From positions 622,782 through 686,781 of the forward strand of contig CP010424.1 in the NCBI GenBank assembly GCA_000830275.1: a stretch of DNA of 64,000 bases, read 5' to 3'. Source of the stretch: an archaeon GW2011_AR10. Lineage in GTDB: Archaea; Iainarchaeota; Iainarchaeia; Iainarchaeales; GW2011-AR10. The translations under genes were made by a program, and so were the position numbers. Shown here piece by piece: positions 508-41,783 of the stretch (the stretch's first letter is position 1; each line of letters begins with the position of its first letter). Below the pieces are notes generated by a model. The model did no database searches, was not told the origin of the DNA, and was given only the letters and a program-made list of their open reading frames with translations.

Positions 508-514
508 AATTTAT

Positions 515-8809: not shown

Positions 8810-8821
8810 GAGTGAAAGGAA

Positions 8822-10193: not shown

Positions 10194-10302
10194 AGTAGTA
10201 CCCCCAATCAAAATTTTTTTTAGAACCCGCCATGTTCTACATCTGAAAGCGATATCAAGGCAAGAATTAATAAGCAGTTTGCACTTTTTTTTATTGGATT
10301 TT

Positions 10303-20588: not shown

Positions 20589-21374
20589 TTACCTGCACGC
20601 TGAAGAATCAAAGTGCTCAATGCCTGCTTCAATGCAGCACCACTCAGAACTCTTAAAGTAGGGAACAGAACCTACTTCTGTCGCATCCCACAAAACCAAA
20701 TCTGCCTGCGTTTCAAATGGCCTGAAAGTTATCTCGTCCTCTGCAACCATTGTTATTTTGGCTGAAGCCTGCGCTGTGTCGCCAACCCGGATAATAAGGT
20801 CTTTCAGGCTGTTGTTGATTGTGCCAAAGTCAGCATTTTCCCCAATGCTGCACAGCAAATCAGTTCTTGGAGGGTCATCAGCAACAAAGTTTGGAAACCT
20901 CCCTGTTCCAATGTTCTCAAAGTTTGTTTTGTGGAAAAAAATGAAGATGAATTTCTGCCTCACATCCTCTTGGTCTCTTGGAACAGAAAGATAGAAAATG
21001 TAATCAAAGTTGTCTCCAAGAGGAGCCATTATTGAATTGATGTCCTGCGCTAAAATCAGCATTGTTTTCTCTGTGAGGTAGCGCTTGTCGGCATAATCTT
21101 CCTTCACATAAGCAAGCAGCTGGTCAATTTCAACTTCACTACTTAAGCCGTAAATTGAGCTGTCTGGGTTTCTTGGAGTGCTGCTGTAAAGAATTGTTTT
21201 AAGGGCATCCGTTGCAAAATCAGAATTGTAGTTCTGCACTATCTGCGCTGAAACAGTGTTGCCGTATCCATTGGAGAAAGAGAAAAGGAAAACGCTGATT
21301 GAGGTAACTATCAGGAGAAAGTAAAGAGCATCTGTTACTGCTGCTTGGCCTCTGTTTTCCTTTAAGGCATCCAT
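20589..21374 (-). CDS. Pilin-like protein with archaeal class III signal peptide
   Basis: N-terminus MDALKENRGQAAVTDALYFLLIVTSISVFLF: charged residues, Gly, then a hydrophobic helix. Confidence 0.5.
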   Translation of the reverse strand: MDALKENRGQAAVTDALYFLLIVTSISVFLFSFSNGYGNTVSAQIVQNYNSDFATDALKTILYSSTPRNPDSSIYGLSSEVEIDQLLAYVKEDYADKRYLTEKTMLILAQDINSIMAPLGDNFDYIFYLSVPRDQEDVRQKFIFIFFHKTNFENIGTGRFPNFVADDPPRTDLLCSIGENADFGTINNSLKDLIIRVGDTAQASAKITMVAEDEITFRPFETQADLVLWDATEVGSVPYFKSSEWCCIEAGIEHFDSSACR

Positions 21375-21901
21375 GTAACCACCACCAAGTGCATTGGCTT
21401 AATAACCCTGTTGTCTTCAACTGCAATCGGGTAAATCCTTGCAACAATTTCTTTGTCGGCAAAAAAACGGTAAGCAAAGCTAGGGGAAGAAGAAATGTCG
21501 CTGTTAATTGCAGGGTCAATGTTGTGGCATGAGAACTCGTTGCCTGCTTCATCCAAGAAAAAGCCCACGTTGTATAGCCTTGCATCCTGGGCATTGTATT
21601 GCAGGCTGTATTGGTCTGTGGCAGTATAATAGTTTGTTATTCCCGCGCGGAATTTAAGGTTTGGAATGCTGAGTGTACTGCACAGCGCTTTGAAGTTCTC
21701 GTAGCCACTTATATAGCTTGTGCCTTTAAGGACTTTGGCAATTTTTATCACTTTGATGTCAGAATCGAACTTGGAGTTTTTATTGTCAAAGACACCGAAA
21801 GCGAAAGTAAAGGTTGAAAAAAACATTATCAGCGCGAAGAGCAGTGGAATCAGGGAAGGCAGGTCATCTCCAATCGGCCCCAAAAAACCTTTATTCAGCA
21901 A
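21362..21901 (-). CDS. Pilus-associated protein with N-terminal transmembrane helix
   Basis: N-terminus MLNKGFLGPIGDDLPSLIPLLFALIMFF; overlaps the downstream gene by 13 bp, so it belongs to the operon. Confidence 0.4.
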   Translation of the reverse strand: MLNKGFLGPIGDDLPSLIPLLFALIMFFSTFTFAFGVFDNKNSKFDSDIKVIKIAKVLKGTSYISGYENFKALCSTLSIPNLKFRAGITNYYTATDQYSLQYNAQDARLYNVGFFLDEAGNEFSCHNIDPAINSDISSSPSFAYRFFADKEIVARIYPIAVEDNRVIKPMHLVVVTWMP

Positions 21902-22587
21902 GTGAAACCAACCCCTGGGTAAACGCTTTCACCCACGCTTGATTTTATGGCATTGCATGTCGGGCCAACGCTGCATGGAAAAATGTAGAGGGAGCTTTGC
22001 CCCCTCTTGATTTCCTTAACTAACTGAATTGAATCCATTGGAACTCTGGCCTGAGGGTCAATGTAAACAGATTCCCCTGTGTCAGTGGCCAGTTCGCGGA
22101 GTGTTCCAATTCCCCCGTACTCGTCACCCAAATAGTCTTGGCTGAAAAGGGTTACTTCTGCTTTTGTTTCAAAGGATTTTGCTGCAATTGCTTTTGGAAT
22201 GTAGGAAGGGTCATTAATTGATTTCACGAGGTCGCGCCTCGGGAAAACCGAGAAAATAACTTTCGAGATTGTTTCAGGGCCTGAGGGAAGCTCTTTCTCA
22301 AACTGCGTTACACTTATTTTCATCACATAGTAGAATTCTTGGCCGCTTACATCAAGGGAGCGCGGGAATGTATGTGAATCAGAAAAACAGTAAGCGGGGG
22401 AAGAAGCAACACTGCTTGCTTTGGTGAGAACCCTGTCAAGCAACAGCTGTGCTTCCTTCACCTTGACTATGTCGATTAAGCCGAAAGTGAAGAAGGCAAC
22501 GATTGCAAAAATTGATACCACAAGTATCAAGAGATTCATTTTGCTTAAAATGAAGCCAAGCATTGTCAAACCCTCTTGTAAACGCAA
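21895..22587 (-). CDS. Pilus-associated protein with N-terminal transmembrane helix
   Basis: N-terminus ...MNLLILVVSIFAIVAFFTFGL; overlaps neighbours on both sides. Confidence 0.4.
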   Translation of the reverse strand: MRLQEGLTMLGFILSKMNLLILVVSIFAIVAFFTFGLIDIVKVKEAQLLLDRVLTKASSVASSPAYCFSDSHTFPRSLDVSGQEFYYVMKISVTQFEKELPSGPETISKVIFSVFPRRDLVKSINDPSYIPKAIAAKSFETKAEVTLFSQDYLGDEYGGIGTLRELATDTGESVYIDPQARVPMDSIQLVKEIKRGQSSLYIFPCSVGPTCNAIKSSVGESVYPGVGFTC

Positions 22588-23111
22588 ATCCTTGGCTGCG
22601 GGGAGAACAAGTGGAACTGCTTGATTAAAGTGTACTGGCCGGGCTCAATTGCTTCGTCTTTCTTCCATTCCTTTACTTTAAATTCTGTTGGCTGGTCGTC
22701 AAAGTCGTGGCAGACTGTTGCGGAAGGAAAATCCGTTGCAGAAGAAATGTTAAGACACTTTATTGAACTGAAGTCAGGCGAGGAAAACAAAAGCAGAGTG
22801 CATTCATAGCGCAACCCGCCACAATGAAAAGAGCAAGTGGCCCGGTCATCCCTGCTGACAATCCTCAGCGAGCTATCATTCTGGTTAAAGCAGGACGGCA
22901 TATCGTATGCAACAGTTTTTTTGCCTTCGCCTTTTGCAACTGTTTCAAGCGCAGTCTTCAATTCCTCCATGTTCTGGTCAATTTTGCCTTCACACTGCGC
23001 TCTCAGCAAAGTGCTCATTGCATTGAGCCCTACAACTATCACAAAAGTCATTGTTATTACTGCAATCAGCAGCTCGAAAGGGGCTGCTTCCTGGCCTTTC
23101 TGGCTGAGCAT
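22566..23111 (-). CDS. Pilin-like protein with archaeal class III signal peptide
   Basis: MLSQKGQEAAPFELLIAVITMTFVIVVGL; start chosen at the internal M because K-G-Q sits right before the hydrophobic helix. The track ORF extends to 23162. Confidence 0.55.
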   Translation of the reverse strand: MLSQKGQEAAPFELLIAVITMTFVIVVGLNAMSTLLRAQCEGKIDQNMEELKTALETVAKGEGKKTVAYDMPSCFNQNDSSLRIVSRDDRATCSFHCGGLRYECTLLLFSSPDFSSIKCLNISSATDFPSATVCHDFDDQPTEFKVKEWKKDEAIEPGQYTLIKQFHLFSPQPRICVYKRV

Positions 23112-23220
23112 GGTAACAAGAATACTGTAAAGAGATATATAAAGATTCTCAGAATCAATCAACAGGTATTGAGGGCAAGCATTATGAGCTGTTTGTGTTA
23201 CTGTAAAAAAACGCAGTGTT

Positions 23221-23388
23221 TTACTTATTGAAATACTTGGCCTGCTGCCTGCTCCAAACCTTATTCGGAGTTTTTTTCAGCCATTCAGCGTACATGTCGA
23301 TAAATTCCATGCGCTGCTGCCTGTTTCTCCTCATTTCCTCTTTAAGCTCTTTCAAATCTTTTTTTGTAAGCTTTAGCCCTTTTCCCAT
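23221..23388 (-). CDS. Small charged protein (55 aa) inside the pilus operon, not in the ORF track
   Basis: Hand translation: MGKGLKLTKKDLKELKEEMRRNRQQRMEFIDMYAEWLKKTPNKVWSRQQAKYFNK; ATG ends at 23388, TAA at 23221-23223. Confidence 0.3.
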   Translation of the reverse strand: MGKGLKLTKKDLKELKEEMRRNRQQRMEFIDMYAEWLKKTPNKVWSRQQAKYFNK

Positions 23389-23547
23389 AAAATTTTCTCC
23401 GCCTGCTTTTCAACCCTGAAATTTTGAAAGCTCTCTTTCAAAAACAATCCTGTTTCCCTTGAATTCCAGTTCCATAAATTAATCTGCCAACAAACTTAAT
23501 TTAACCATTCTCAAGCAAAAAAAGTATCCAAGTATTTGAAGTAGTAG

Positions 23548-23706
23548 TCAGTTTATGAGCGGCTGCCTTTTAACTATTTCCTGGCTCTTCTTGAACATTG
23601 GCTTAATCAAAGCAATCAGCAAAAGCGCTGCAATAATAAAAATAATGATTAGGTAAATTGAGCTCCATTCACCCTGCGCCCTTTCACCTAATTCAGGAAA
23701 TCCCAT
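23548..23706 (-). CDS. Small hydrophobic pilin-like protein (52 aa), not in the ORF track
   Basis: Hand translation: MGFPELGERAQGEWSSIYLIIIFIIAALLLIALIKPMFKKSQEIVKRQPLIN; short charged N-terminus, Gly, then one helix, like short Flp-type pilins. Confidence 0.4.
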   Translation of the reverse strand: MGFPELGERAQGEWSSIYLIIIFIIAALLLIALIKPMFKKSQEIVKRQPLIN

Positions 23707-23752
23707 ATAGAAAAAGAATGGAAAAAGAAGTATTTAATGATTGGTGTTAGGT

Positions 23753-24301
23753 TTAACTTGCCGGAATAATGCTTACAAGGCAAATCCTTTCAGTGTTTGA
23801 GGGGTCAAATATTGCTGTTCCACCGCCACAAAAGCTGTTGTAGCCGGAAAACACTGTGTCAAGCCTTGCTTCTAGGACGGTTTCCTCAACCCTGTTCGCG
23901 TTATCGCAGAGCACGTATAGCTTCTGCTGCTGGTCAGAGTTGCCGTTGTAGCGAATCCAAGAGCCTTGAGCAACTTCCTCATAGTTAGGGTTGCTTCCTG
24001 AAACAGTGTCAGAAATTAAAACGCAAAGCTGGTGCTCTCCAAGCGAACCAGTTTTTTCTGCAATTGTCCTTGACCTCAGGCTTGTGCCGTTCTTGAATGT
24101 TACTAATCCTGTTCTTTCAGGCGTGCCCAAATTGTTGATGAGTGTCTTAATTTTTGAGGACGCTTCCTCTGTGGGGTCGCCTTGGCTTGGGGGCGCAATC
24201 TGCGTTAAAATCTGCAGCAGAATTGTGAGAATGAATACTGCAACAATTGCTGCAATCAACAGCTTGAAAACGCTGAAAGCCTGCCCTCTCTCATTCAACA
24301 T
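23753..24301 (-). CDS. Pilin-like protein with archaeal class III signal peptide
   Basis: MLNERGQAFSVFKLLIAAIVAVFILTILLQIL. Confidence 0.6.
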   Translation of the reverse strand: MLNERGQAFSVFKLLIAAIVAVFILTILLQILTQIAPPSQGDPTEEASSKIKTLINNLGTPERTGLVTFKNGTSLRSRTIAEKTGSLGEHQLCVLISDTVSGSNPNYEEVAQGSWIRYNGNSDQQQKLYVLCDNANRVEETVLEARLDTVFSGYNSFCGGGTAIFDPSNTERICLVSIIPAS

Positions 24302-24366
24302 AGCAATCGTAAATAGAAACTCTTAACCCATATTTAAAGGTTTTGCTTTAATTCGGCTATAAACAG

Positions 24367-24813
24367 CTAAGGCGTAATTGGTTTAGAGAAAGAGAACTTG
24401 CAGCAGATTTCGCAGGTTGAATCGCAAAAGGAGGCAGGGTCAAGGTTTGTTGTGCACTGCGCGTAAAAGTTTGTTTCAATGCGGTAATTTACCAGTATTC
24501 TTTGCGAGTCAACAGTGAAAGAGGAACTGCTTGGAGCAAGAATTTCAACGCATTGCCCCTCTAATCCTGTTCTTCTTGCAAGAAAATCTTTAGTATAAAC
24601 TGTGCCTTTGTCGAAGAGGAGGTTTTCAACAACAAGAATGTCATTGTTTGGCTGCTGCACCGCGTTCTCTAATCCTTCAAGAAAACGCTCTTTGCTCACG
24701 TTTATTTTGAACTCCTCAAAGGAACGGATTGCACCGAGAATTATTAATAAAATCAGCAGCGCAACTATTGCGCCAATCATCATCTTGAACGGCTCAAACT
24801 GCCCTTTCTCCAT
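24367..24813 (-). CDS. Pilin-like protein with archaeal class III signal peptide
   Basis: MEKGQFEPFKMMIGAIVALLILLIILGAI; start chosen at the internal M (track start 24831). Confidence 0.6.
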   Translation of the reverse strand: MEKGQFEPFKMMIGAIVALLILLIILGAIRSFEEFKINVSKERFLEGLENAVQQPNNDILVVENLLFDKGTVYTKDFLARRTGLEGQCVEILAPSSSSFTVDSQRILVNYRIETNFYAQCTTNLDPASFCDSTCEICCKFSFSKPITP

Positions 24814-24852
24814 ACTAAAAACATCTCCCAATTTTTTTTAGTGTAAAAAACA

Positions 24853-27210
24853 TTAAGCCAAAAATCCGCCGACGAGAATGTTGGAAATAATTATGCTTAA
24901 AACGAAAATTATAACTGAAATTGGGAAAAAGCGCGCAATGTTTATTCTCACCAGCAAATCGTTGTCCTCCTCTATTTTGGTGGTGAAGTAAGTCATTATG
25001 AGGAGAAGCTCCACAACGTAGATTGCAACGATGATTACGAACTGCGTTGGAGTAGCCATTCCAGCAACTGCTGCCGGGTCAATGAAGCTTCCAACGTTTA
25101 TGCCAGAAAACGTGTTTGGAATGCCTGCTCCTCCTGGAACATCAAGGTTGCTCAGATCAAGTTCCGTTGCAATATTGGAAGAAGCGATGGAGGAAAGGGT
25201 TATTATTACGATTTTCTGCAGGCTTGTTGTAATGCCCAAAACCATCGGCGCAATGAATAGGCTCATTGTCTTCATCATTCCTGTTACATCAGAAACCAAA
25301 ATCTTCAAATTGTTTGCAACCTTTTCCGCGTTGTCGAGCTGGATGCTTAACGCAATCATTGTCCTGGCAGCAACGTTCACCCCCAATTGCACTGAATCAA
25401 CAAGCAGCCTCACTGAACCGCTAATCAACGAGCTTGGAATGTTTTTCAATGAACCATAGTTTGGGTCAAAGAATGCCTGCTCTAATGGCATTGCAAGCAA
25501 GGCAATGTTGTCAAGCGTTTTCGAGAAAATCCTTTTCGATATTTTGAACTGTGGCAAAAAATCCATTGTGTGCTTTAATGCTTCCTCCACCGGCTTGTTT
25601 TCACCCATGCGGGAAGCAAGAATGTAGATTGAGTCCTTGAACTCTGACTCCATTTCAACAATTTCAAGCTGGGCTTTCCGCTTGTAAATGTTGTTGTAGT
25701 AGAGGTAAACAAACACTGAAAGTGAAACGGTTATGAGCAGGCCGAAAATGAAATTGTAGGGAGTAATATCGTTGGCCGGCTTCGTGAAAAATGCCTGTTC
25801 CTCGCTTTTCACGCGTTTCTCTGCTTCCTCAACAGGAAAACCCTGCGCAATCAGCTCATTGTAAAGCACTCCTGTGGGAATGTCAAAGTATTTCAATTGG
25901 TAGCCTGCTTTTGAAAGAACTTCAGTCCTTTGCTTGTCTAATGCAAGCAGCTGCGGCGTGCCTTCCTCAAGGCCCAAAGCATCGTAAAGAATTTTTGGCG
26001 GAACTCCTTGCTGTGAAACAAAAAAGGAAATTGAGCTTCCTGCAATCAACACAACAACAACCACGAAGAAAATGCTCACAAAGCCGTTGCCTAACCTCAT
26101 TGTGCCCTTCGGCGGCAAACCCGGAAAGTTGTCCTTTATTTCAGGCGCAACATACGTTGGTGGGCGCTTGCTTATAACGGAGAAAGCAAACCAAAGCGTA
26201 ACCAAAGGAATTATTATGTTGTAAATGGCAAACAAAACAATTGGGTTTGCAAGCGGTGCGCCGCTGAAAGAGCTCCCTACAGGAAGAATGATTATCAGAA
26301 TCAATGGAAGCAGCACCCCAACATAGAAGAGAATCATTGTTGGCTGGTTGAGGTCGCGAGCATACTGCTCCATTTTGTTTTTTATTGACTCAAGTATTTC
26401 ATCCATTGTTTGGTCAAGCAAAGCAAAACGCTTTGCTTCAGTTGTTTCAATCACTGAAGCGCGGATTCGCATCAACGCTTTCTTGAATTCATCGCTGAAT
26501 GCACCCCAGCGGTAAGCCAGTGCATCGCTTGCTTCTGCAACAGACGAGTAAACTCCCAACTGGACATCCCACAAAAGTTTTTTGAAGTCTTCAGCAATTT
26601 TGCCCCTGCCGTGCTCTGCTGCAAACTCAATGCTTTTCTCCAGGTTCGGGCTTAACTTCATTGACATAACCATGTAGCCGAGGATTTCAGGAACATAAGT
26701 CAAAGCACGCACCTGCTCTGCTCTTGCCTCCTCCAAGGGATAGTTTTGAACATAATATGTTGCAAAAACCACCATGCCAAGCAATGGGAGGAGAATGTAG
26801 ATTGGCGTAAGAAAGGTTGCCCCGCCAACGAATAGGTTTACAACCACTATTGCAGGGGACAGGAAAATAATTCCTGCAATTACTATTGCAGCAAGAAAGC
26901 TCACAATCAGCACGAACTTGTACGCTGCACCAAGCTCTTCCCCATTTAGCTCCCAACCCAGAAACTCCACTGCCTTCTTGTTCTGCTCTGAAAGCGCTTC
27001 ACCTTTTCCTAGTGAAGGAGCCATTGCGTGAATGCGCTTGCAGAACCTAACAAAAGGGTGCTGTTTTCTCCTTACAAGCGTTCTTTCCTCATTCTTGAAC
27101 TCGTCCTTGACCACGGCTATTTCCCTGTAAAGCTCTCCAATAGAGCTTGGCCCATCAAACAGCTTCTCTTCTTCTTCCTGCTCTCTTTCTTCCCTGTCTT
27201 TTCTCGCCAT
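24853..27210 (-). CDS. Type IV pilus platform membrane protein (FlaJ/TadC-like, two-domain, 785 aa)
   Basis: Polytopic; helical bundles alternate with two soluble regions, as in two-domain T2SSF platforms; sits directly downstream of the ATPase. Confidence 0.55.
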   Translation of the reverse strand: MARKDREEREQEEEEKLFDGPSSIGELYREIAVVKDEFKNEERTLVRRKQHPFVRFCKRIHAMAPSLGKGEALSEQNKKAVEFLGWELNGEELGAAYKFVLIVSFLAAIVIAGIIFLSPAIVVVNLFVGGATFLTPIYILLPLLGMVVFATYYVQNYPLEEARAEQVRALTYVPEILGYMVMSMKLSPNLEKSIEFAAEHGRGKIAEDFKKLLWDVQLGVYSSVAEASDALAYRWGAFSDEFKKALMRIRASVIETTEAKRFALLDQTMDEILESIKNKMEQYARDLNQPTMILFYVGVLLPLILIIILPVGSSFSGAPLANPIVLFAIYNIIIPLVTLWFAFSVISKRPPTYVAPEIKDNFPGLPPKGTMRLGNGFVSIFFVVVVVLIAGSSISFFVSQQGVPPKILYDALGLEEGTPQLLALDKQRTEVLSKAGYQLKYFDIPTGVLYNELIAQGFPVEEAEKRVKSEEQAFFTKPANDITPYNFIFGLLITVSLSVFVYLYYNNIYKRKAQLEIVEMESEFKDSIYILASRMGENKPVEEALKHTMDFLPQFKISKRIFSKTLDNIALLAMPLEQAFFDPNYGSLKNIPSSLISGSVRLLVDSVQLGVNVAARTMIALSIQLDNAEKVANNLKILVSDVTGMMKTMSLFIAPMVLGITTSLQKIVIITLSSIASSNIATELDLSNLDVPGGAGIPNTFSGINVGSFIDPAAVAGMATPTQFVIIVAIYVVELLLIMTYFTTKIEEDNDLLVRINIARFFPISVIIFVLSIIISNILVGGFLA

Positions 27211-27224
27211 AAAATGGTTTCACT

Positions 27225-29504
27225 TCAAGACTTTGTTTTGGCAATTATTCCCTTAATTAAGTGGTTTTTTACCCAGTTCTTCCACTCGCCCAGAACCTCT
27301 TCGTAGTCAACGGAACCGTGTTCTTCAAGCTGGTCCTCCTTCAATAGCATGAGCTTGTTGTTTGCAAGAACCGCGTTTTCTGCTTCAAGCAGAGAAGGAA
27401 TTGAATTCTTGTTCTTCATTTCCACCAAAAACTCTTTTGCCGAGCCATTCATTCTTATGCTCCTCCAGATTTCTTCAAGGTTGAGGCCGCTCATCTTGCT
27501 TATCTTTGAGAACATCTCGCTTTCCTTAAGGTTGTCTTCAAGCAGTTCAAGCTCGTCTTTTTTTGCGTCATAACTCATTAGGTCCAGCAAACCGCCCTCT
27601 CTTTCAGGATCCTCAATCCAGTGCTTTTTCACCTCTGTTATCTGGACAATTCTCCTGTTCCTCTGCAGTGACCCGGAAAACCTTATCGGCCTTGCAACCA
27701 CGACAACATCAGTTGCCTTAAACGAAGTGTTTGGAACATCCAAGTCATTCACTACCCTATCCCACACAGAGTAAGCGCTTTCACCGTGGATTGTTCCCAT
27801 CACAATGTTTCCCGCAGCACCAATTCTCATTGCCTCGTACAGAACCCTTGCTTCCTTGCTCCTCACTTCACCTATGATTAGGGCAGAATCTCCCAAACGA
27901 AGCGCTGTCCTCAAAGCTTCCTCTGGCGCAACCTCAGAGGAAGTGCCGCCAGCAGCAATAGGTGAACGCGTTTTAAGCCTCTGGATGTTGAAGCCTATGT
28001 TCTTCATGTAAGGAACTGGAAGTTCCAAGGTGTCTTCCTGCACAATTATTCTCGTGCTCTGGATAATTTCAAGGATTAGTGCCTGCATCAAAGAAGTTTT
28101 TCCGCTGCCCCTTGAACCAGTAACCAGCATTGTTGCCTGTGCGTCAACGAAAAAAGAAAGCAGGCCTGCTGAAAGAGGAGTTAAAAATTTCACGTCAACA
28201 AACTGGGGCAGCGTCCAAGGAGTAACCTTATGCAGCCTGAAAGCAAACGCGATTCCGCTCGGCGCAAGCGGCGGGCCAATGACTGCAACCCTTGTCTCCA
28301 TGTCAGGCAAATCAAAGTCCAGGACTGGATGAGCTTCATCAAATGGCCTGCCTGACATTGCACGCATTTTTGATACAAGCGAACTTGCCTCTCCTTCAGT
28401 GTAAAGAATGTTGGTTTCGCACTGGCCAAAGTCAGAGTGAATAACGTAAAGCGGCTTCTGCCCGATGGGAGAATCAATGAAAATGTCTGTGAGGTTCCTG
28501 TCAGAGAGCAGCAGTTCAAGGATTCCGTAGCCGACAGTGTACCTTGCAACAATCTGGCTTAACTCAATTATTTCATCGTTGCCAAGAGAAATATTGTTCT
28601 CTTTCGCGATGTCCTTGATTGTTGACTGGTAAACGCGCTCAAAGTACTTCCTGCTTTTCGCAAGCTCGCTTAAAGAGGTTTTTCCAGGCCTGTACGATGC
28701 AACGATTTCCCTTGTCTTGCTCAAAATGAAGTACTTGTCCGGGGGCAGGGAATACTCTGGGGGATTGACAATGTAAAGCTTCTGCGGCTTGTTCGGGTGC
28801 TTGAATATCTGCACTGTTGTATCCTTCACTTGGTATTCGTCCAGAAGCTCCAGCTTTTCCTCTTCTTCAAACAGCAGCCTTGAACCGATAAAGGAGGGTT
28901 TTACCTGCGCTTCAAAGAACGGCTTGTACATTTCTTTTGTGTCAGGAACTGTTTTCAGCTTCAAAAGAATCTGTTTGGCTTTCTGGACAAGCATTGTGCT
29001 GTCAAGGTTCTTCTTTATGTAAAGCAGGGTGCGAAGGTAAACATCAGAGTAATGCTCTTTGTCCTCAGAGCTAAAGCGCTCCCTTTCCTTGCTGATGGCG
29101 CGGAGCAGTTCAAGGTAAGAATAAATCGGGTCAAACAACAGGGTATCGTGAGTGATTTTAACAATAGTGTTGTGCCTTTCACCGAAGTCTTTTTCGCCCT
29201 CAATTTTTGCATCCCCTAAAAACTTGTAGCTCCACACGCTTTCAATCTCTAATTTTTGCGCAACCCTCGAAATTTCCTCCAGAAGCTTTTTCTGCTCCTC
29301 GCTGTAAACCCTTTCGTACACTTCAGCCAAAACAATGTCGTCAACTTCCACTTCTTGAAGCAGGCTGAAGACATGGTACCTGCATGCAGGGTCATCAGCG
29401 ATTGAGGAACTATAAACGCAGTCGCGACAGTCAAAAATCAGGTGCCTCTTGTTGCCTTCCTCTTTAACCGCCCAAGGGCCTACTTCAAAACCGCCGATTT
29501 TCAA
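27225..29504 (-). CDS. Type IV pilus assembly ATPase (FlaI/ArlI/PilB-like) with extended N-terminal domain
   Basis: Walker A TGSRGSGKTSLMQAL, Asp box IIVQEDTLEL, Walker B/His box ALIIGEVRSKEA...GTIHGESA; 759 aa, about 200 aa longer than typical FlaI. Confidence 0.8.
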   Translation of the reverse strand: MKIGGFEVGPWAVKEEGNKRHLIFDCRDCVYSSSIADDPACRYHVFSLLQEVEVDDIVLAEVYERVYSEEQKKLLEEISRVAQKLEIESVWSYKFLGDAKIEGEKDFGERHNTIVKITHDTLLFDPIYSYLELLRAISKERERFSSEDKEHYSDVYLRTLLYIKKNLDSTMLVQKAKQILLKLKTVPDTKEMYKPFFEAQVKPSFIGSRLLFEEEEKLELLDEYQVKDTTVQIFKHPNKPQKLYIVNPPEYSLPPDKYFILSKTREIVASYRPGKTSLSELAKSRKYFERVYQSTIKDIAKENNISLGNDEIIELSQIVARYTVGYGILELLLSDRNLTDIFIDSPIGQKPLYVIHSDFGQCETNILYTEGEASSLVSKMRAMSGRPFDEAHPVLDFDLPDMETRVAVIGPPLAPSGIAFAFRLHKVTPWTLPQFVDVKFLTPLSAGLLSFFVDAQATMLVTGSRGSGKTSLMQALILEIIQSTRIIVQEDTLELPVPYMKNIGFNIQRLKTRSPIAAGGTSSEVAPEEALRTALRLGDSALIIGEVRSKEARVLYEAMRIGAAGNIVMGTIHGESAYSVWDRVVNDLDVPNTSFKATDVVVVARPIRFSGSLQRNRRIVQITEVKKHWIEDPEREGGLLDLMSYDAKKDELELLEDNLKESEMFSKISKMSGLNLEEIWRSIRMNGSAKEFLVEMKNKNSIPSLLEAENAVLANNKLMLLKEDQLEEHGSVDYEEVLGEWKNWVKNHLIKGIIAKTKS

Positions 29505-29759: not shown

Positions 29760-30995
29760 ATGCGGTTCGGCGAAGTGTTAAAGAATTCATTCACCCTGTG
29801 GCTGAAGGACAAAAAGAGCCTTATATATGTTCTTGCATTAATTGGATTGTTTGCGGTTCTCGCAGCTGGATTGATTGCTTTTCTTGCAATTGGTTCTTTG
29901 ACTAACTCGATTAGATTTATTGAAGGTTCGGACTTAACCCAAGTGGCCCTTTCAGATGACGGAAACATCATCTTCCTGGCAATTGCGGCAATTGTTTTGC
30001 TCTGCGCTTTTATAGTGTTTTTTGTAGGCACATTCTATGTGTCAGCCTTGCTGGAGGTTCGAGCGCTGCAGCTGCTGGGCTTTAACACCGCGCGGTTCGG
30101 GCTAATTAAATTCGTCAAGCTTGTTCTATTCCAGATTTGGGTTTCAATCATGGCCTACACTTCATGGTACAACAAGGTGTTCTTCTACTATCTAATCGGG
30201 CTGATTCTCTTCTGGGTTACATCAATCGGCGTGTTTTTGCTGATTGAGCGCATCGGAAACATTTTGCTTTTATTGGCAACACTGCTTTCAGCTGTCTACC
30301 TTTTACCTGTTATATACAACACAATTAGGCTGAGCATTGCTTCCGCCATTTATCTCCATGAGGACTTTGGGATTATGAAGGCAGGAAGGGCCGCATGGGA
30401 GCTAGCGCACAAGAAAGTGCTTGGAATATTCATTGCATTCCTGCTGGTGCAGATTGCAATTCAAATATTACTAATCATACCTTGGTTTGTCTTAATTATT
30501 GCGGCAAACGTTGCCCTGCTTTTGACAGGCATAGAACTCTTAGCAATTGCAATTGCTTTCACAGGAATGGCCTTGATAATTATTTTTGCTATTGTTGTTT
30601 CATCTTTTGCAGTGCCAAGCATTTACTCGGAAGTGAAAAACAGCCCGAGCGAGCAGCCACCTGCCCCAAGTGGTTTGCCGAAAAATACAACTGCCCTTAC
30701 AACAATGCAAACCAATGAGCCGATTGAAAGAATGCGCGCATCAATCCAAAGGCAGGAGCCAGTTTACTCTCAGCCACAAAGGCAACAGAGCTATGCAAGG
30801 CGCAGCCCTGCAGCTGCTGGGCTTTCAGCGGTTGAAAAAGCGCATGTGAACAAGCTTGCTGCAGTGCTGAAAGACGTTTCCCACCGCTACAAGGAATCGG
30901 AAATAAGGCAAGTAATAAAGGAAAAGAATTACTCTGACAGAATAGCGGATGAAACAATCAAGCTGCTCCAGAAAGACCTTAAAAACAGCAAATGA
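29760..30995 (+). CDS. Hypothetical polytopic membrane protein
   Basis: 411 aa with about eight hydrophobic helices and a hydrophilic C-terminal tail. Confidence 0.45.
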   Translation: MRFGEVLKNSFTLWLKDKKSLIYVLALIGLFAVLAAGLIAFLAIGSLTNSIRFIEGSDLTQVALSDDGNIIFLAIAAIVLLCAFIVFFVGTFYVSALLEVRALQLLGFNTARFGLIKFVKLVLFQIWVSIMAYTSWYNKVFFYYLIGLILFWVTSIGVFLLIERIGNILLLLATLLSAVYLLPVIYNTIRLSIASAIYLHEDFGIMKAGRAAWELAHKKVLGIFIAFLLVQIAIQILLIIPWFVLIIAANVALLLTGIELLAIAIAFTGMALIIIFAIVVSSFAVPSIYSEVKNSPSEQPPAPSGLPKNTTALTTMQTNEPIERMRASIQRQEPVYSQPQRQQSYARRSPAAAGLSAVEKAHVNKLAAVLKDVSHRYKESEIRQVIKEKNYSDRIADETIKLLQKDLKNSK

Positions 30996-31028: not shown

Positions 31029-31586
31029 ATGCACAAAAAATTTGAATTTCTGAGTAAAACTTTTTCAGAGAAAGAAATACTTAAAGCAGGAAAGTTTCTT
31101 TTGGGCTTAGCTGCATACTTCATTGCGCTGAGCTTTCTTGTTTCACTGGTGCCGCTGGAATTGGTTGAATTCTTTTTTGCATCAGTTTCACTTTTCTTTC
31201 TTGGGTTTTTTGGCTTTTCGGGAGAACTGGTTTTCACGGAACCAGTTATCATGCAATTGCAGGGCTTGGAGCAAGGAATTGCAATAACCTATCTTTGCAC
31301 TGGCCTGCTGGAACTGGTGCTGCTTGTTTCAGCTGTTGCCTCCTCGTTCGGCATTGAATGGAAAAAAAGAATTATTGGAGTTATTGCTGGCGCAATTGCA
31401 TTGGTTGCGTTCAACGTTTTCAGGATAGTTTCAAGCATTCTGATTATTCTTTGGTTTGGTTTGGAGGCAGGTGGCTTTTCGCATGACCTGTTGTTCAGGG
31501 TTTTTTTGTTTGCAACCGTTGCCGGCTACTATTTTGTGTGGTTTAACTGGGCCACAAGACTAAAAAAACTGAATTCCACCTTATAG
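31029..31586 (+). CDS. Small polytopic membrane protein, possible exosortase/archaeosortase-family
   Basis: Five to six helices; a helix-embedded Cys (ITYLCTGLLEL) and a downstream N-x-x-R (AFNVFRIV) resemble the conserved Cys and Arg of that family. Weak, motif-level only. Confidence 0.3.
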   Translation: MHKKFEFLSKTFSEKEILKAGKFLLGLAAYFIALSFLVSLVPLELVEFFFASVSLFFLGFFGFSGELVFTEPVIMQLQGLEQGIAITYLCTGLLELVLLVSAVASSFGIEWKKRIIGVIAGAIALVAFNVFRIVSSILIILWFGLEAGGFSHDLLFRVFLFATVAGYYFVWFNWATRLKKLNSTL

Positions 31587-31949
31587 CATTATAGTGTTTT
31601 CTCCTTCAAAGTGTTTGTCCCCAGTAACAATCGGCAGATTGTACTGCTTTGCTGTTGCAAGAATGATTGCATCAATTAAACCAAAATCCTTGAAGTTTTT
31701 TCTTTTTTCTATTTTTAATATACCTGATGTTTCCAATTGTTCTTGGTTGACTTCGATAATTGTAGACAGGTTTTTAACAATGTGAAAAATTTTTTGCCGG
31801 TTAAGTTTGCTTTTTTCAACCCACTCGCTCAGCTCTGCAATAGAAATAGCACTTGTGAAACACTGGTTATTAGCAATAACTTCTTTTACTTTTAGGCCCC
31901 TGCTAGTACCATTAAATAATTCAATCCAAGCATATGTATCCAAAAGCAC
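31581..31949 (-). CDS. vapC: PIN-domain toxin VapC
   Basis: N-terminal MLLDTYAWIE (first acidic residue) and C-terminal PIVTGDKHFEG are the PIN-domain signatures. Confidence 0.8.
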   Translation of the reverse strand: MLLDTYAWIELFNGTSRGLKVKEVIANNQCFTSAISIAELSEWVEKSKLNRQKIFHIVKNLSTIIEVNQEQLETSGILKIEKRKNFKDFGLIDAIILATAKQYNLPIVTGDKHFEGENTIML

Positions 31950-32168
31950 TTAAAACACTCTGTCTTTGTGGTCTCGCCTAAAGGGTTTTGCATTTTTTAC
32001 AGAACCAAATGCTTTTTCAAGTAAAGAGATGTCTTTTTTAATAACAGCCAACTGTATTTTCTCCCCCTCGCCGATTTTTTCCTGTTTTACTACCTCCTTT
32101 GGAATCAGAGCACCCCAAGAACTCCCAACCTTTCTAAGCTTGGTTTCAAAAACCTGCACAAAAATCAC
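31950..32168 (-). CDS. vapB: AbrB/SpoVT-type antitoxin VapB
   Basis: 72 aa; KVGSSWGALIPKEVV matches the swapped-hairpin DNA-binding fold; its stop abuts the vapC start. Confidence 0.7.
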   Translation of the reverse strand: MIFVQVFETKLRKVGSSWGALIPKEVVKQEKIGEGEKIQLAVIKKDISLLEKAFGSVKNAKPFRRDHKDRVF

Positions 32169-32350: not shown

Positions 32351-32935
32351 GTGAATTTGTTGGAGAAGCGCTATAGAAACCTCGCCCTGTTAGTGGTTGC
32401 AGTAATAGTTTTAGCTTTGGCTTGGCTTCTTTTTTCCTCTGTTTCCTTTGAGTCAAAGCTCTCGGAAATTGATGCAGTGTGGAAAGAAAACGGCCTTAGC
32501 GTGGCTGGTTTTCCTTACCGAAATTCACAGGAATTTGACGCGCTCAGCCTGCAGGAAATTGAGTCACTGAAGGAAAGGCTTGGCAGGGTTGAGCCGGCAA
32601 GAATTGAATCAGTTGAACAGTTTGTGGCATTAAACAAAAAGCTGTTGGCTCTTGCAACCGCTAGGAAACTTTTGGAGGAAAAAGTTCTTGCAATCGAATC
32701 AACAGCAGGCATATGCAGTGAACTCAGCCTTCTTGATGAACTGCTAGAAGCCCAAAGGGAAGTGAACGAAAAATCAAAATCGTTTGTTGGAAGCTACAAT
32801 TTGTTCGTTGAGTCTTTTCCTAGGGAAGCCGAGACAGCATCGCTTCCACAAATTGAGGACAACGGCCTTGAACTGGAGTTCCTGCTCGCGCAACAGGAGG
32901 AAAATGCTGCAGCAGTCAGGGGTGAGTGCGCTTGA
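32351..32935 (+). CDS. Hypothetical membrane-anchored protein
   Basis: N-terminal transmembrane helix (LALLVVAVIVLALAWLLF) then a helical, Leu/Glu-rich region. Confidence 0.4.
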   Translation: MNLLEKRYRNLALLVVAVIVLALAWLLFSSVSFESKLSEIDAVWKENGLSVAGFPYRNSQEFDALSLQEIESLKERLGRVEPARIESVEQFVALNKKLLALATARKLLEEKVLAIESTAGICSELSLLDELLEAQREVNEKSKSFVGSYNLFVESFPREAETASLPQIEDNGLELEFLLAQQEENAAAVRGECA

Positions 32936-35900
32936 AGAAAAAACCTTTATTCTTGCTTTTGCTGCTTGCACTGCTTTTAACTGCCGCTAACGCAGAAGCA
33001 CAAATTGCTGCCTCTGAGTGGAATGAAGGCGTTATTGCAACCAGCTTCAGCTGCAGGAAAAGCAACTGCGTTGCATTGCCCTCTCGTTTGGCTTTAGGCA
33101 AGAGAGTTGAGGTGTGCTCTTCCAAAGGATGCGTGACCGCGGTTGTAGCAGATGTTGGGCCTTGGTGCAGGCAGGATGACCCCTACGTGCTTGGCAACAG
33201 CAGGCCTTTTGCTGAGCAGCGTGCAGGAGAAAACCTTGATGATGCATTAAAATTTCCTGAAGCAGGAGAGGACACCTTGGACTGCAGAACTAACCCGAAA
33301 GTTGGAGGGCCTATTCCAAGGAAAAGCAACGGCGCAGGCATTGACTTATCGGTTGATGTTGACAGGGAACTAGGCAACAACGGAAAAGGAATTGTGAGCT
33401 GGAGGTTCATTGATGATCCAACCAATTCGCTGTTGAAATTGATTGACACTGCAAGAAAATCCCAGCAGGAGTCAATTCCAAATATTTTTTCGGCTTCAAT
33501 TAGTTCAGGCGCTCCGCTTGACTTCTTCAGGGGCAAAACAGTTCTTATTGATGTAGGGCACGGTGGAAGGGATCCCGGCGCAGTTTTCACCACCAAAAAC
33601 GGGCAGACAGTGAACGAGAAGGACATGGCACTCTCGTATTCAAATAAACTCAAAGAAGTGCTTGAATCAAACGGGGCGAGGGTTTTGATGACAAGGGAAA
33701 CCGATGTTTACCTTTCCTTGAGCGAAAGGGTTGACATCATTAACAGGGAAAAACCTGATGTTGCAATTTCAATGCACATTAACTCTGCAAGGCTGCCTGT
33801 TTTCAGGGGCACACCACTGGTTTTCGTGGCATGCCTTTTCAGGGAGGAGGGCAAAAACGGCAACGGCTTGGTTGACATAGCAGAATTTGCCTCATTTAAC
33901 CAGTTGTGCCAGCCTAACCCTGCTGAAAGCCACCAAGGCAGCGTAATAGTGGCATCGAACGTTACAAACAAGTTAAGCGGGTTTCTTACCGGAATGCGCG
34001 TAGCTGATGCAACTGTTCTGGTTAGGTCAAATTCTCCTGTTGTGTTGTTTGAGGTTGGCTTTGGCTCGAACAAGGATGAACTTGAAAGAATGCTGACTCC
34101 ATTGCACCAGACAACCATAACTCTTGGCTTGGCAGCAGCAATACAGGATTACCTTGGAAAAACGAAAAAGGCAGCAGTAACTGGAACCGAGCTGAAGGAA
34201 ATTGAGCTGGAGGAAGAACTGGATTATGTTGTGCTGAACTTTGGTGACCTAAGCGAACTCGAAAGGAGGGGGGTGCCAAACCCAATCACTTCAATTGCAA
34301 GCGGCACAAAATTCTACAAGAACGGGAACGAAGTGGATGCGTTCGCAACTTCGATTGTTCCTGATTCGGCTGGCAGCGAAAACAAGCTGGCAGTGTACAG
34401 GCTGCAACAGTACTCATCATACAATTTTGAGGTGAAGCTCACAGGCTACTTTGACAACAAGGTGATTGGCACAGGAAGCTTTGGGCCTATTCCTGGAAAG
34501 GCAAAGCCGGAGCTAAACGCAAATGTAAAGTGGAATTTTGCAGGGGAAGCAGCAGGCAATGTTGCTCCAACCGCTGTTGCAAATGACATAAATGCAGTGA
34601 AAGGAAAAGCGGTTTTGCTTGACGCTTCAAGGTCTTTTGACTCCGATGGAACAATTGAAGGTTACTTGTGGCTTGATTCAAGTCACCCGGATGAAAGCCC
34701 TGCAAATGGGAAAAGAGTTGCAGAGGCAACTGTTTCAGCTGTGTTTAACACTTTGGGAGAGCACCTTGTAATTCTTTACGTAACAGATGACAAGGGGGCA
34801 ACCGGCTCGGAAACTTTTTACGTGAATGTAGCCAAGGAACAAGAAGGCATAGTGGAAGAAGGAGCTCCGAGGATTGAGAGACTTGTGCTGAATTATGAGT
34901 ATTCTTTACGAATCAGATACAACGAGGACGGCACTATCAGGGAAACAGATGTTATTTCCCTGCAGCTCGGAAAAAACCAATTAATCTCTGCCGCGTTTTA
35001 TTCCCCTGTTGAGTTTTATCGCGCGCAACTTGAGCTCTGGGCATTCCAGGAGGGAATTACTCCAAGCGCGGCAAGCATTGAGAGGAGAATGATAATTGCG
35101 GCTGATGAACGAGGCACTAATGCTCATGAGGCAGGCACTGACATATTGGTGCCAATTGATGAGGGAAAAATTGTCAGCCTAGACGAAATAGATTACGGAA
35201 AAATTGGGACAGGGCAGTGGAACAGTTCAGTGAAAGAGTTCGTGCAAAAATTCAAGGACAACCAGTATTATTTTAGGGTTGAAACAAGGATTGAAAAGGA
35301 AAGCAATGGTAAAAAGGTTGGCTCACAATTCGTGCCGGTAAGCATATCCTTGTTTGAGGAGCTTCCGCGCATTGAGAGCTGCAGTTCCATTAGGGAGTGC
35401 CTTGCCCGCGGCAGCCAGATTGTTTCCAACAGTCTTTTGAGGGCAGGCGAACAGGCAGAAGATTTTGAGGGCTTGAAGTGCGTGCAATTAGAGGAAGGAA
35501 AGCAGCTGGATGTTGTCAGTGCTCCATGCATTTCAGCTGAAAGGATTGATGAAATCCTTGCAGCAAACGATTCTCCGGCAGCTGGAACAGGAAAGGCATT
35601 CTATGATTACGGTTTAAAGTACGGCATTGACCCAACAGTTGCCTTGGCTTTCTTTAGGGAAGAGTCAACTTTCGGAAAGTTTGGGGCAGCAAACAGGACA
35701 AAATCAATCGGCAACATCAGGTATTACGATACTGCTGACCCAAATGATGCTGCTTACTGCCCAACGCAGAGAAATGACAATGGATTCTGCTCTTATGACA
35801 GCTGGGAGCAAGGCATCGAGCACTTCTACAAGTACATTAATGGCCCGCTTTACGTTGCAGCAGGCAACAATACTCTGGAGGAAATAGTGCCAATTTACAT

Positions 35901-35976
35901 TTCCGCTTCTTCAACTGAAACAAGCAGCATCATCAGCAAAATGAGAAGCTGGTTGGCTGAGTGGAGGGAACAGTAG
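32926..35976 (+). CDS. Secreted multi-domain peptidoglycan hydrolase (amidase-3 plus lysozyme/glucosaminidase-like)
   Basis: Signal peptide; RlpA/3D-like segment (GVIATSFSCRKSNCVALPSRLALGKRVEVCSSKGCVTAVVADVGPW); amidase-3 motifs (VLIDVGHGGRDPGAV...ARVLMTRETDVYLSLSERVDIINREKPDVAISMHINSA); PKD-like segment (LLDASRSFDSDGTIEGYLW); C-terminal lysozyme-like region (GIDPTVALAFFREESTFGKFGAANRTKSIGNIRYYD). Confidence 0.65.
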   Translation: MRLKKKPLFLLLLLALLLTAANAEAQIAASEWNEGVIATSFSCRKSNCVALPSRLALGKRVEVCSSKGCVTAVVADVGPWCRQDDPYVLGNSRPFAEQRAGENLDDALKFPEAGEDTLDCRTNPKVGGPIPRKSNGAGIDLSVDVDRELGNNGKGIVSWRFIDDPTNSLLKLIDTARKSQQESIPNIFSASISSGAPLDFFRGKTVLIDVGHGGRDPGAVFTTKNGQTVNEKDMALSYSNKLKEVLESNGARVLMTRETDVYLSLSERVDIINREKPDVAISMHINSARLPVFRGTPLVFVACLFREEGKNGNGLVDIAEFASFNQLCQPNPAESHQGSVIVASNVTNKLSGFLTGMRVADATVLVRSNSPVVLFEVGFGSNKDELERMLTPLHQTTITLGLAAAIQDYLGKTKKAAVTGTELKEIELEEELDYVVLNFGDLSELERRGVPNPITSIASGTKFYKNGNEVDAFATSIVPDSAGSENKLAVYRLQQYSSYNFEVKLTGYFDNKVIGTGSFGPIPGKAKPELNANVKWNFAGEAAGNVAPTAVANDINAVKGKAVLLDASRSFDSDGTIEGYLWLDSSHPDESPANGKRVAEATVSAVFNTLGEHLVILYVTDDKGATGSETFYVNVAKEQEGIVEEGAPRIERLVLNYEYSLRIRYNEDGTIRETDVISLQLGKNQLISAAFYSPVEFYRAQLELWAFQEGITPSAASIERRMIIAADERGTNAHEAGTDILVPIDEGKIVSLDEIDYGKIGTGQWNSSVKEFVQKFKDNQYYFRVETRIEKESNGKKVGSQFVPVSISLFEELPRIESCSSIRECLARGSQIVSNSLLRAGEQAEDFEGLKCVQLEEGKQLDVVSAPCISAERIDEILAANDSPAAGTGKAFYDYGLKYGIDPTVALAFFREESTFGKFGAANRTKSIGNIRYYDTADPNDAAYCPTQRNDNGFCSYDSWEQGIEHFYKYINGPLYVAAGNNTLEEIVPIYISASSTETSSIISKMRSWLAEWREQ

Positions 35977-40743: not shown

Positions 40744-40956
40744 ATGGCTAATGGGAAAACCGTTGTTTTGAAGAAGGAAGCTATTAATGAATTAAGGAAA
40801 GAAGCTAACCGGCTTAGAAGTGATTTTAAGGGGTATCTTGAGGATTTGGAGCTGATGAGCAATCCTGCTTTTTGGAAATCTGTTGAGGAGTTGCAGTCCG
40901 GAAAATTGAAGAAATATGATTCGCTGGAAGAATTTTTCAAAGAGCTTGAAAGCTGA
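40744..40956 (+). CDS. Putative antitoxin partner of the RelE-family toxin
   Basis: 70 aa, charged; its TGA overlaps the toxin ATG (ATGA at 40953-40958). Assigned by position, not motif. Confidence 0.5.
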   Translation: MANGKTVVLKKEAINELRKEANRLRSDFKGYLEDLELMSNPAFWKSVEELQSGKLKKYDSLEEFFKELES

Positions 40957-41204
40957 TGCCTTATAGTTATTCTTTTTCCAGCGAATTCAAAAAGTCATTC
41001 AAGAAACTTGACCGCAGAATGAAAATTCTTGTTAAAAAGAAGATTGCCAAGATTGCAGAGAACCCTGAACTTGGAAAACCGTTGCATAAGCCTTTGCAGA
41101 ACTTCAAAAGTGAAAGAGTTGAGAAAATGCGGATAGTCTATGCTTTTGACGGCAAATCAATCGAGTTTGCATTGCTTGACGACAGAGGACATGTTTACGG
41201 TTAA
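40956..41204 (+). CDS. relE: RelE/ParE-family toxin
   Basis: 82 aa; pattern FKKSFKKLDRRMKILVKKKIAKIAENPELGKPL...RVEKMRIVYAFDGKSIEFALLDDRGHVY matches RelE-type mRNA interferases. Confidence 0.65.
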   Translation: MPYSYSFSSEFKKSFKKLDRRMKILVKKKIAKIAENPELGKPLHKPLQNFKSERVEKMRIVYAFDGKSIEFALLDDRGHVYG

Positions 41205-41691: not shown

Positions 41692-41783
41692 TTGGCTGGA
41701 GAAGGGAGCATCCTTAATATATTAGTTTTCACTTTTAATACTACTATATAATGCGTTGAATGCTTTGCGCGCGAGGCCTTTTC

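Follow-up and report, generated by a model that had tools for sequence, protein, structure and literature searches.

The stretch of DNA analysed here, which we call the window, comprises 64,000 nucleotides of contig CP010424.1 (positions 622,782 to 686,781 of the forward strand) from the Iainarchaeota archaeon GW2011_AR10, and our analysis covered these 64 kb of a genome of ~1.24 Mb together with locus-centred fragments. On either side of one type-IV-pilus-like gene cluster, the window carries the gene of a 185-residue protein of the archaeosortase family (31029 to 31586, plus strand), with Cys90 as its putative nucleophile, and the gene of a 1609-residue secreted surface protein (12832 to 17661, minus strand) that its signal peptide, conserved tail and synteny mark as the most likely substrate. 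The first of these is an open reading frame of 185 codons starting with ATG, and it is a real gene rather than a chance frame because its homologs are numerous: 46 were found at E ≤ 1e-28, being the identical protein and 45 relatives at 41-66% identity, and a HMMER profile search with the sortase yielded 583 cluster representatives at E ≤ 1e-3, 61 of them at E ≤ 1e-30. The identical protein occurs on many metagenome contigs, the longest being 1,241,428 bp, and is named 'exosortase/archaeosortase family protein [Candidatus Diapherotrites archaeon]' at NCBI.

An original prediction, made from the letters of the window alone, had weakly proposed an archaeosortase-like or exosortase-like identity for this polytopic protein, on account of a Cys-Thr-Gly and a downstream Asn-Val-Phe-Arg. 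Both motifs are found in the translation (Cys90-Thr91-Gly92 and Asn129-Val-Phe-Arg132), to which we can add His152, and the identity is borne out by comparison with profile hidden Markov models (HMMs). The NCBIfam model TIGR04178 of the exosortase/archaeosortase family scored 39.7 bits (E 4.5e-10) where its curated cutoff is 23, with residues 86-174 of the sortase covering positions 3-94 of the 97 in the model and hence an alignment nearly end to end, and the same model matched 45/45 members of the clade. Membership of the family is, as far as sequence comparison goes, nearly certain. None of the named subfamily models (ArtA-ArtG, pacearchaeosortase, heimdallarchaeosortase and XrtA-XrtY) reached its own cutoff with the 185-residue protein, the best score being that of XrtX (34.7 vs 170), followed by XrtH (29.6 vs 86), XrtG (27.5 vs 103), ArtB (22 vs 150), ArtD (16.5 vs 125), heimdallarchaeosortase (15 vs 130) and pacearchaeosortase (11.8 vs 80); the best subfamily E-value across the 45 clade members was 4.8e-13. 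All the species-representative genomes with a relative of the sortase (39/39) are labelled Iainarchaeum, Diapherotrites or unclassified archaeon. By these scores and labels the proteins appear as a clade of small archaeosortases outside the named subfamilies, so far seen in Iainarchaeota (Diapherotrites, DPANN). The family assignment is already in the public annotation; new are the subfamily, the signal that goes with it and the coupling seen in the genomes. The literature searched contained no paper on archaeosortases in Diapherotrites or Iainarchaeota, and the PDB copy, searched by sequence and by fold, contained no solved structure of the family.

The exosortase family is defined by the motifs Cys-x-Gly, Asn-x-x-Arg and His-x-x-x-Gly, which are carried by three consecutive transmembrane helices, one on each and close to its outer end, and the Cys of Cys-x-Gly is the most conserved point of the family (Haft 2006, PMC1569441); in Haloferax ArtA the residues Cys173, Arg214 and Arg253 are required for activity (PMC9263693). 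All 45/45 relatives keep the residues C90, T91, G92, N129, R132, H152 and F156 of the protein studied here, and C90-T91-G92 falls inside the best-conserved block of the sortase, YLCTGLLE. The supposition that Cys and Arg stand at the catalytic positions thus held, as Cys-x-Gly and Asn-x-x-Arg follow one another in the order of the family, with H152 after them in H-x-x-x-F and with Cys, Asn, Arg and His all among the invariant residues, and the spacing from Cys to Arg is 42 residues, compared with 41 in ArtA (C173, R214). A simple hydropathy scan detected four hydrophobic segments. The AlphaFold2 model built with the 45 aligned relatives has a mean predicted local distance difference test (pLDDT) value of 91.1 and a predicted template modelling score (pTM) of 0.82, and presents helices at 14-39, 43-59, 88-104, 111-143 and 145-184 with a small beta element at 65-86, the three motifs being distributed over the consecutive helices 88-104, 111-143 and 145-184. 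Lys and Arg are concentrated in the N-tail (6), the loop 105-114 (3) and the C-tail (3) and are missing from the loops 40-47, 60-87 and 143-151. Because of this distribution (12 vs 0 on the opposite side) the positive-inside rule would place Cys90, Arg132 and His152 in the outer half of the membrane, on the extracytoplasmic side, and we infer that they cluster in space.

The 1609-residue protein opens with a signal peptide (MRKLPSLFLIAIILLSTYPANA) and its C-terminus reads ...LLNLPSLPENPVVLALFIVSLIAVFVYIRREKN; neither Pfam nor NCBIfam recognised a domain in it. Its C-terminal signal (12835 to 12927, minus strand) is made of three parts, N-L-P-S-L-P-E, a hydrophobic helix of 20 residues and R-R-E-K-N. 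A database search with the last 350 residues recovered 13 orthologs, all of them with tails of the form ...[F/L]-N-[L/I]-P-S-[L/I/V]-P-[E/Q] preceded by a variable Gly-rich linker and followed by a hydrophobic stretch and then Arg/Lys. Scanning metagenomes added 80 further loci with orthologs at 33-66% identity, whose complete tails are almost all laid out in this way, the distant ones reading F-N-I-P-L-T-P-E, and the orthologs at two sortase loci, L037 and L134, come on top of the 13 and the 80. In all, the motif is kept in about 90 orthologs, even at 33-40% identity in the neighbouring domain. Both prolines are present in 78 of roughly 80 complete tails; these 78 were aligned on the two prolines of the search pattern, so that Pro is 78/78 by construction. 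At the other positions Glu follows the second Pro in 68/78 tails, Asn stands two before the first Pro in 68/78 and Phe or Leu three before it in 76/78. Over F-N-L-P-S-L-P-E the information content is 3.1-4.3 bits in the 76 distinct ortholog tails, against 1.2-2 bits in the Gly-rich linker and for the greater part of the helix. After the motif comes an uncharged run with a median length of 20 residues, and the median number of Lys/Arg among the last 15 residues is 5. As read from the sequence, this is the classic tripartite architecture of a sortase-type signal, and it is probably at this conserved C-terminal signal of the 1609-residue protein that the sortase cuts.

The sorting-domain models of NCBIfam (PGF-, PEF-, PIP-, VPXXXP-, PEP-, Loki-, Heimdall-CTERM, LPXTG and others), applied to whole proteins and to ten isolated tails, gave no score at cutoff; the whole proteins had no match and the best of the isolated tails reached 13.6 with Loki-CTERM against a cutoff of 19.9. 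Across roughly 1.5 Mb of loci, P-x-x-P-E followed by a helix at the C-terminus was found in no other open reading frame. A search of a database of 5.8 billion proteins with a profile of the tail returned one ortholog fragment and missed known orthologs, and is therefore silent on other substrates. In the available sequence enzyme and target look like a 'dedicated' pair of one sortase and one target.

The original prediction had named two candidate substrates, the 1609-residue protein and a membrane-anchored protein of 646 residues (3738 to 5678, plus strand). Both exist, each with a hydrophobic helix before a basic tail at its C-terminus, and the remark that no motif is obviously common to the two tails was correct; the first stands as candidate by virtue of its conserved motif-helix-basic signal and its synteny with the sortase, and the second does not. 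The 646-residue protein ends in ...EKPTDLLGTLLVIVIVIVAIAAAYTYFMKKK and has a weak DUF11 repeat as its sole domain, and the tails of its homologs run from a Pro/Ala-rich stalk through a helix to KKK, the nearest that they come to a motif being a loose D-[LY]-[TL]. We rejected it as a substrate since its homologs have neither P-x-x-P-E nor any other conserved motif. It adjoins a block of glycan-biosynthesis genes (58-3499: a hexapeptide acyltransferase, a GT2 glycosyltransferase, a methyltransferase and a Wzx-like polysaccharide flippase), and because of this adjacency the surface proteins may be glycosylated.

It could be argued that the P-x-x-P-E tail of the 1609-residue protein is a permanent anchor with a conserved juxtamembrane segment, that the real substrates of the sortase lie elsewhere and carry another motif, and that the proximity of the genes reflects a 'cell-surface island'. 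The view gains from the fact that about 5% of the genome was seen, from the uninformative profile search, from the large anchored proteins without the motif that lie directly beside the sortase in loci L012, L032 and L037, and from the precedent of haloarchaea, where ArtA and its substrates are unlinked (PMC7157517). A motif of eight residues at 3-4 bits beside an unconserved linker is, however, unexpected for a plain anchor. The 646-residue family, which provides the comparison with such an anchor, has no motif of this kind, and the sortase stays near the target gene in L134 in spite of the rearrangement of that locus. We consider a plain anchor rather improbable. C-terminally anchored proteins directly beside the sortase occur in some relatives, namely in L012 (10732-15774), L032 (84-3455), L037 (9280-9897) and L018 (4733-8776); before the helix their tails read, in the same order, ...GQPLEAAQ, ...AEAPEIH, ...KNPSILP and ...AAGLQQ, the exact motif being absent. 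It may be that such proteins serve the enzyme as further or alternative substrates and that their Pro/Glu motif is a looser one.

The genomic arrangement joins the two proteins to the pilus-like cluster. In the window the gene of the 1609-residue protein is 13 kb from that of the sortase, and its tail is 18 kb from it. Sortase and target share a contig in three further cases, with distances from tail to sortase of 8 kb (L037), about 25 kb (Ga0209542_10000368) and 2 kb (L134), the last, which is the most telling of the four cases, belonging to a more distant genome with a rearranged gene order, whose ortholog has the tail PFN-LPSLP-TEPYLL...KRKK; the CABMIU genome encodes both the sortase (L017) and the target (L041) on separate contigs. 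Within 10 kb of the 3' end of the target gene a sortase was found in 0/80 metagenome loci, which is uninformative because the length of the gene plus the pilus cluster exceeds the flank. A pilus or giant-protein component is present in 37/39 sortase-centred loci, and the pilus ATPase lies ≤4 kb from the sortase in 19 of the 25 loci with enough flank. Of the 80 target-centred loci, 36-37 have, upstream of the target gene and within the limit of the 10-kb flank, the pilin genes that flank the sortase. The pilus-like cluster is syntenic with the sortase in nearly all of the Iainarchaeota loci (L003-L039), and the linkage between sortase and pilus genes persists through an inversion of the ATPase-platform-pilin block. 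Two more distant relatives of the sortase, L129 and L130, have neither pilus nor giant neighbours. Sortase, target, pilus-like cluster and giant proteins form one conserved locus. The literature searched held no report of an archaeosortase inside a pilus gene cluster, and no sortase is known for archaeal pili according to the thread-filament paper.

The giant pilin-like proteins (about 2800 residues) are encoded on the plus strand downstream of the sortase, and in the window the stretch in between holds a toxin-antitoxin pair and an amidase cluster. Three of them lie in tandem. The first (41760 to 50288, 2842 residues) has a conserved leader of 48 residues and then K-G-I-P-A-F-P, a single hydrophobic segment at residues 57-75 and immunoglobulin (Ig)-like domains; a paralog of 2669 residues follows at 52112 to 60121 with an N-terminal K-N-I-P-S-F-P and a helix, and a third, partial paralog of >1041 residues (60876 to 63998), with D-K-I-V-P-S-F-A and a helix, runs beyond the end of the window. 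The Ig-like domains recognised in the giants are CarboxypepD_reg, SpaA and Big_1. Their conserved, acidic leader of ~48 residues contains two (K/R)-G-I-P repeats, and the conserved N-terminus reads ...E-[D/K]-[K/R]-G-I-P-[S/A]-[F/L]-P and then the helix. It resembles a class III (prepilin) signal, though one whose leader is very long; NCBIfam had no match to the N-termini. Their C-termini were considered as classical signals and discarded, having a conserved Y..W..[FY] end but no helix. We scanned the expression [LIV]P[SA][LFIMV]P over 580,260 residues of long open reading frames from the loci (L001-L122, L134) and obtained 91 occurrences, 78 of them with a hydrophobic helix directly after; these 78 comprise 56 target tails, 21 giant N-termini and 1 probably spurious reading frame. 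The two occurrences would be on opposite sides of the membrane, since the motif should be outside the cell in the target tail and at the cytoplasmic face in the giants if their Ig-rich part is outside.

These observations bear on a different role for the enzyme, in which it mainly serves the pilus system and the giants, may read the N-terminal [L/I]-P-[S/A]-[L/F]-P and helix of the giants, and may use a pilus component as acceptor, the 1609-residue protein then being joined covalently to a pilus or a giant adhesin instead of a lipid. A giant starts ≤3 kb downstream of the sortase, often at 30-100 bp, in 17 of the 26 loci with enough flank, and does so in distant relatives too (L128, L135 and L136); the pilus or giant components of 37/39 loci and the linkage that outlasts the block inversion point the same way, as do the near exclusivity of the pentapeptide plus helix to target tails and giants (77/78) and the identical LPSLP in the target tail and the giant of L134. 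The same can be said of P0161 in locus L042 (7134-10442), a natural 1102-residue fusion, possibly an artefact, in which a repeated basic linker (MERKG...) connects an archaeosortase domain to a pilin-like protein of 850 residues (KG-FYAVTPFLGVIIIL...), and whose gene is divergent from that of a T2SSE ATPase, with a UbiA prenyltransferase after it. Yet the motif of the giants comes after Lys/Arg-Gly and before their only helix, which should place it, if their Ig-rich part is outside, at the cytoplasmic face, opposite the active site of the sortase, and the giants lack a C-terminal helix as well as basic residues clustered after their helix. Synteny within one phylum is moreover in part inheritable, and L129 and L130 have no such neighbours. 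We know of no enzyme of the exosortase family that acts on an N-terminal signal. We thus regard a main role in the pilus system, the foremost rival reading, as unlikely, and the same applies to its fullest form, in which the archaeosortase would be an integral, co-transcribed part of the type-IV-pilus-like apparatus and might covalently join or co-process the 1600-residue protein and the giants through their common motif, for instance by passing the cleaved surface protein to a pilus or giant component. If it were true, archaea would have their own counterpart of pili built by sortases, based on a type-IV scaffold and on an enzyme of unrelated fold, and it might serve in DPANN archaea as part of a device for attachment to hosts or prey.

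We return to the reading that we prefer, with a probability of roughly 0.6, in which a five-helix archaeosortase cleaves the 1609-residue protein for anchoring. The mechanistic model is drawn by analogy from ArtA (PMC7157517; PMC6098224) and from bacterial sortases. After export through Sec, the 1609-residue protein would be held in the membrane by its C-terminal helix, and at the outer face of the membrane the sortase would recognise P-x-x-P-E. Cys90 would attack within or beside this motif to give a thioester with release of the helix and the basic tail, and the acyl-enzyme would be resolved by an amine, most plausibly that of a lipid headgroup such as archaetidylethanolamine, so that the product would be a lipid-anchored surface protein. 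We propose the lipid as acceptor with less confidence than the 1609-residue protein as substrate.

Several observations weigh against this model. Genes resembling pssA or pssD were not found in the 64-kb window; the gene most tightly associated with the sortase is that of a giant (2700-2950 residues) and not that of the target; and further substrates may exist elsewhere in the genome. The other two concern the enzyme itself. Its third motif is H152-D-L-L-F156, that is H-x-x-x-F instead of H-x-x-x-G, with R157 after it (Arg or Lys in the relatives), and the Pfam model PF09721 (Exosortase_EpsH) gives 22.5 bits, below its gathering score of 25.7. Both of these, together with the very small size of the protein, are what could be expected of a sortase-like protein that is inactive or diverted, for example to a structural role in the membrane part of the pilus machinery. 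Such a fate is hard to reconcile with Cys, Asn, Arg and His being invariant in 45/45 relatives, and other named subfamilies are as small, with models of 150-168 positions, so that we think it most improbable. Of the 254 positions of PF09721 the C-terminal half alone aligns to the sortase, a precomputed match to this model is present on several of its close homologs, and the shortfall is an effect of the short protein, not a conflict.

The cluster between target and sortase is encoded on the minus strand. An assembly ATPase of the type II/IV secretion family (T2SSE, 27225 to 29504, 759 residues) matches PF00437 at E 7.6e-17, has FlaI/TadA-like matches in NCBIfam and carries a long N-terminal extension. 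Beside it a polytopic platform protein of 785 residues (T2SSF/FlaJ-like, 24853 to 27210), with nine hydrophobic segments and present in 21 sortase loci, falls marginally below the cutoff of PF00482 (24.6 vs 25.2 bits). Six small pilin-like genes (20589 to 24831), syntenic with the sortase and the 1609-residue gene, encode class-III-type N-termini of [KR]-G and then a hydrophobic helix that are conserved across loci, for example QAFSVFKLLIAAIV after Arg-Gly and QFEPFKMMIGAIV after Lys-Gly. Another N-terminus, that of pil179, reads KG-FLGPIGDD-LPSLIP before the helix in the window, the form of the family being KG-F-[I/L]-GPIGDD-LPSLIP, which is related to the element of the target tails and the giants. 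Judged by these matches, the region 20589-29504 constitutes a complete archaeal type-IV-pilus-like cluster of ATPase, platform and class III pilins; a prepilin peptidase was not found within the 64-kb window. A pilin-like protein of 490 residues (Lys-Gly followed by FTLFTALVAF) is encoded after the first giant gene (50335 to 51807, plus strand), with weak matches to ComGF/ComGE pilin N-termini, and recurs at the same position in L014, L028, L029 and L136.

Other neighbours are less readily placed. Directly upstream of the sortase, on the plus strand, lies a polytopic membrane protein of 411 residues (29760 to 30995) with seven hydrophobic segments, no family match and homologs detectable at the same position in 4-5 loci only. 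Upstream of the 1609-residue gene and co-directional with it is the gene of a five-helix membrane protein of 180 residues (17843 to 18385, minus strand), a conserved neighbour whose homologs adjoin the 1609-residue ortholog in 22/80 loci and additionally in L040, L041 and L134. We considered it as a second processing enzyme and set it aside, as it has no family match and no invariant residue of catalytic type. On the other side of the 1609-residue gene a second, smaller T2SSE ATPase (445 residues), two T2SSF-like genes and a PAC2-family gene are located at 6682-9736 and 10279-11049 (plus strand), and this gene set is found downstream of the 1609-residue gene in 32-42 of the 80 loci; in L040 and L134 the smaller ATPase has ferredoxin-like (Fer4) domains.

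The 3' end of the sortase gene overlaps by 6 bp with a convergent PIN-domain toxin gene (31581-32168, minus strand), accompanied by a putative antitoxin of 72 residues, and a ParE-like toxin gene lies at 40956-41204 (plus strand). In this genome toxin-antitoxin pairs mark the insertion between sortase and giants, and similar PIN, HicA and MazE interruptions of the cluster are seen in L023, L126 and L135. A secreted protein of 1016 residues (32926-35976, plus strand) combines N-acetylmuramoyl-L-alanine amidase (Amidase_3), PKD and glucosaminidase-like domains, and the giant of L136 (6585-15074) carries an SLT lytic transglycosylase domain; the presence of peptidoglycan-cleaving enzymes beside pili and adhesins suggests interaction with bacterial cells. 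Scans of the 64-kb window for tRNA and Rfam families were empty.

Comparison with known systems helps to situate the locus. Like ArtA of Haloferax volcanii and its PGF-CTERM substrates, the enzyme belongs to TIGR04178, has Cys and Arg in the same order at nearly the same spacing (42 vs 41) and would act on a large secreted surface protein with motif, helix and basic tail. Unlike ArtA, it reaches no cutoff of the ArtA-G models and has about 185 residues and 5 helices instead of about 300 residues, while the signal is [F/L]-N-[L/I]-P-S-x-P-E and not Pro-Gly-Phe, with apparently one target family where ArtA has many. In addition, the sortase gene is part of a pilus-like locus, while artA shows no linkage to the genes of its substrates, and lipid attachment is here an analogy. 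The minimal size is similar to that of XrtX, XrtH, XrtG, XrtY, ArtB, ArtD and pacearchaeosortase, and many small exosortases and archaeosortases resemble the present one in being 'dedicated', with the genes of enzyme and target close together; HMM alignment over the full length is best with XrtX (41-164/168), XrtH (31-155/158) and ArtB (9-150/156). It differs from them in scoring far under the curated cutoffs and in forming an archaeal clade, so far restricted to Iainarchaeota. With the PEP-CTERM/EpsH system of Gram-negative bacteria the locus shares the Cys-x-Gly and Asn-x-x-Arg motifs and the His of the enzyme and a Pro/Glu signal to which a short helix and a basic cluster are directly attached (PMC1569441), but the signal is P-x-x-P-E and not P-E-P, there is a single target family instead of a paralogous expansion, no PEP-CTERM model matches, and neither an outer membrane nor an exopolysaccharide locus is involved. 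The resemblance to the pilus sortases of Gram-positive bacteria lies in a Cys transpeptidase encoded in a pilus cluster beside large adhesins with SpaA/prealbumin-like Ig folds; the fold of the enzyme is unrelated, however, and the pili of this locus are of the type-IV kind, built by ATPase and platform and not by sortase polymerisation. A covalent role of the sortase in pilus biology is speculation.

To our knowledge, experiments on archaeosortases have been confined to haloarchaea and almost nothing is known of how DPANN archaea build their surfaces. An apparently one-to-one pair of enzyme and target with a sharp motif, lying outside the current NCBIfam models, would allow better annotation of Iainarchaeota, and the locus offers a simple system for the study of archaeosortase specificity. 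If the motif shared by the giants is functional, the range of signals recognised by the exosortase/archaeosortase family would be wider. That the sortase is coupled to a type-IV-pilus-like cluster, to the Ig-rich giants and to a peptidoglycan hydrolase that is secreted points to a surface apparatus that may mediate cell contact, and contact between cells is central to the biology of ultrasmall archaea.

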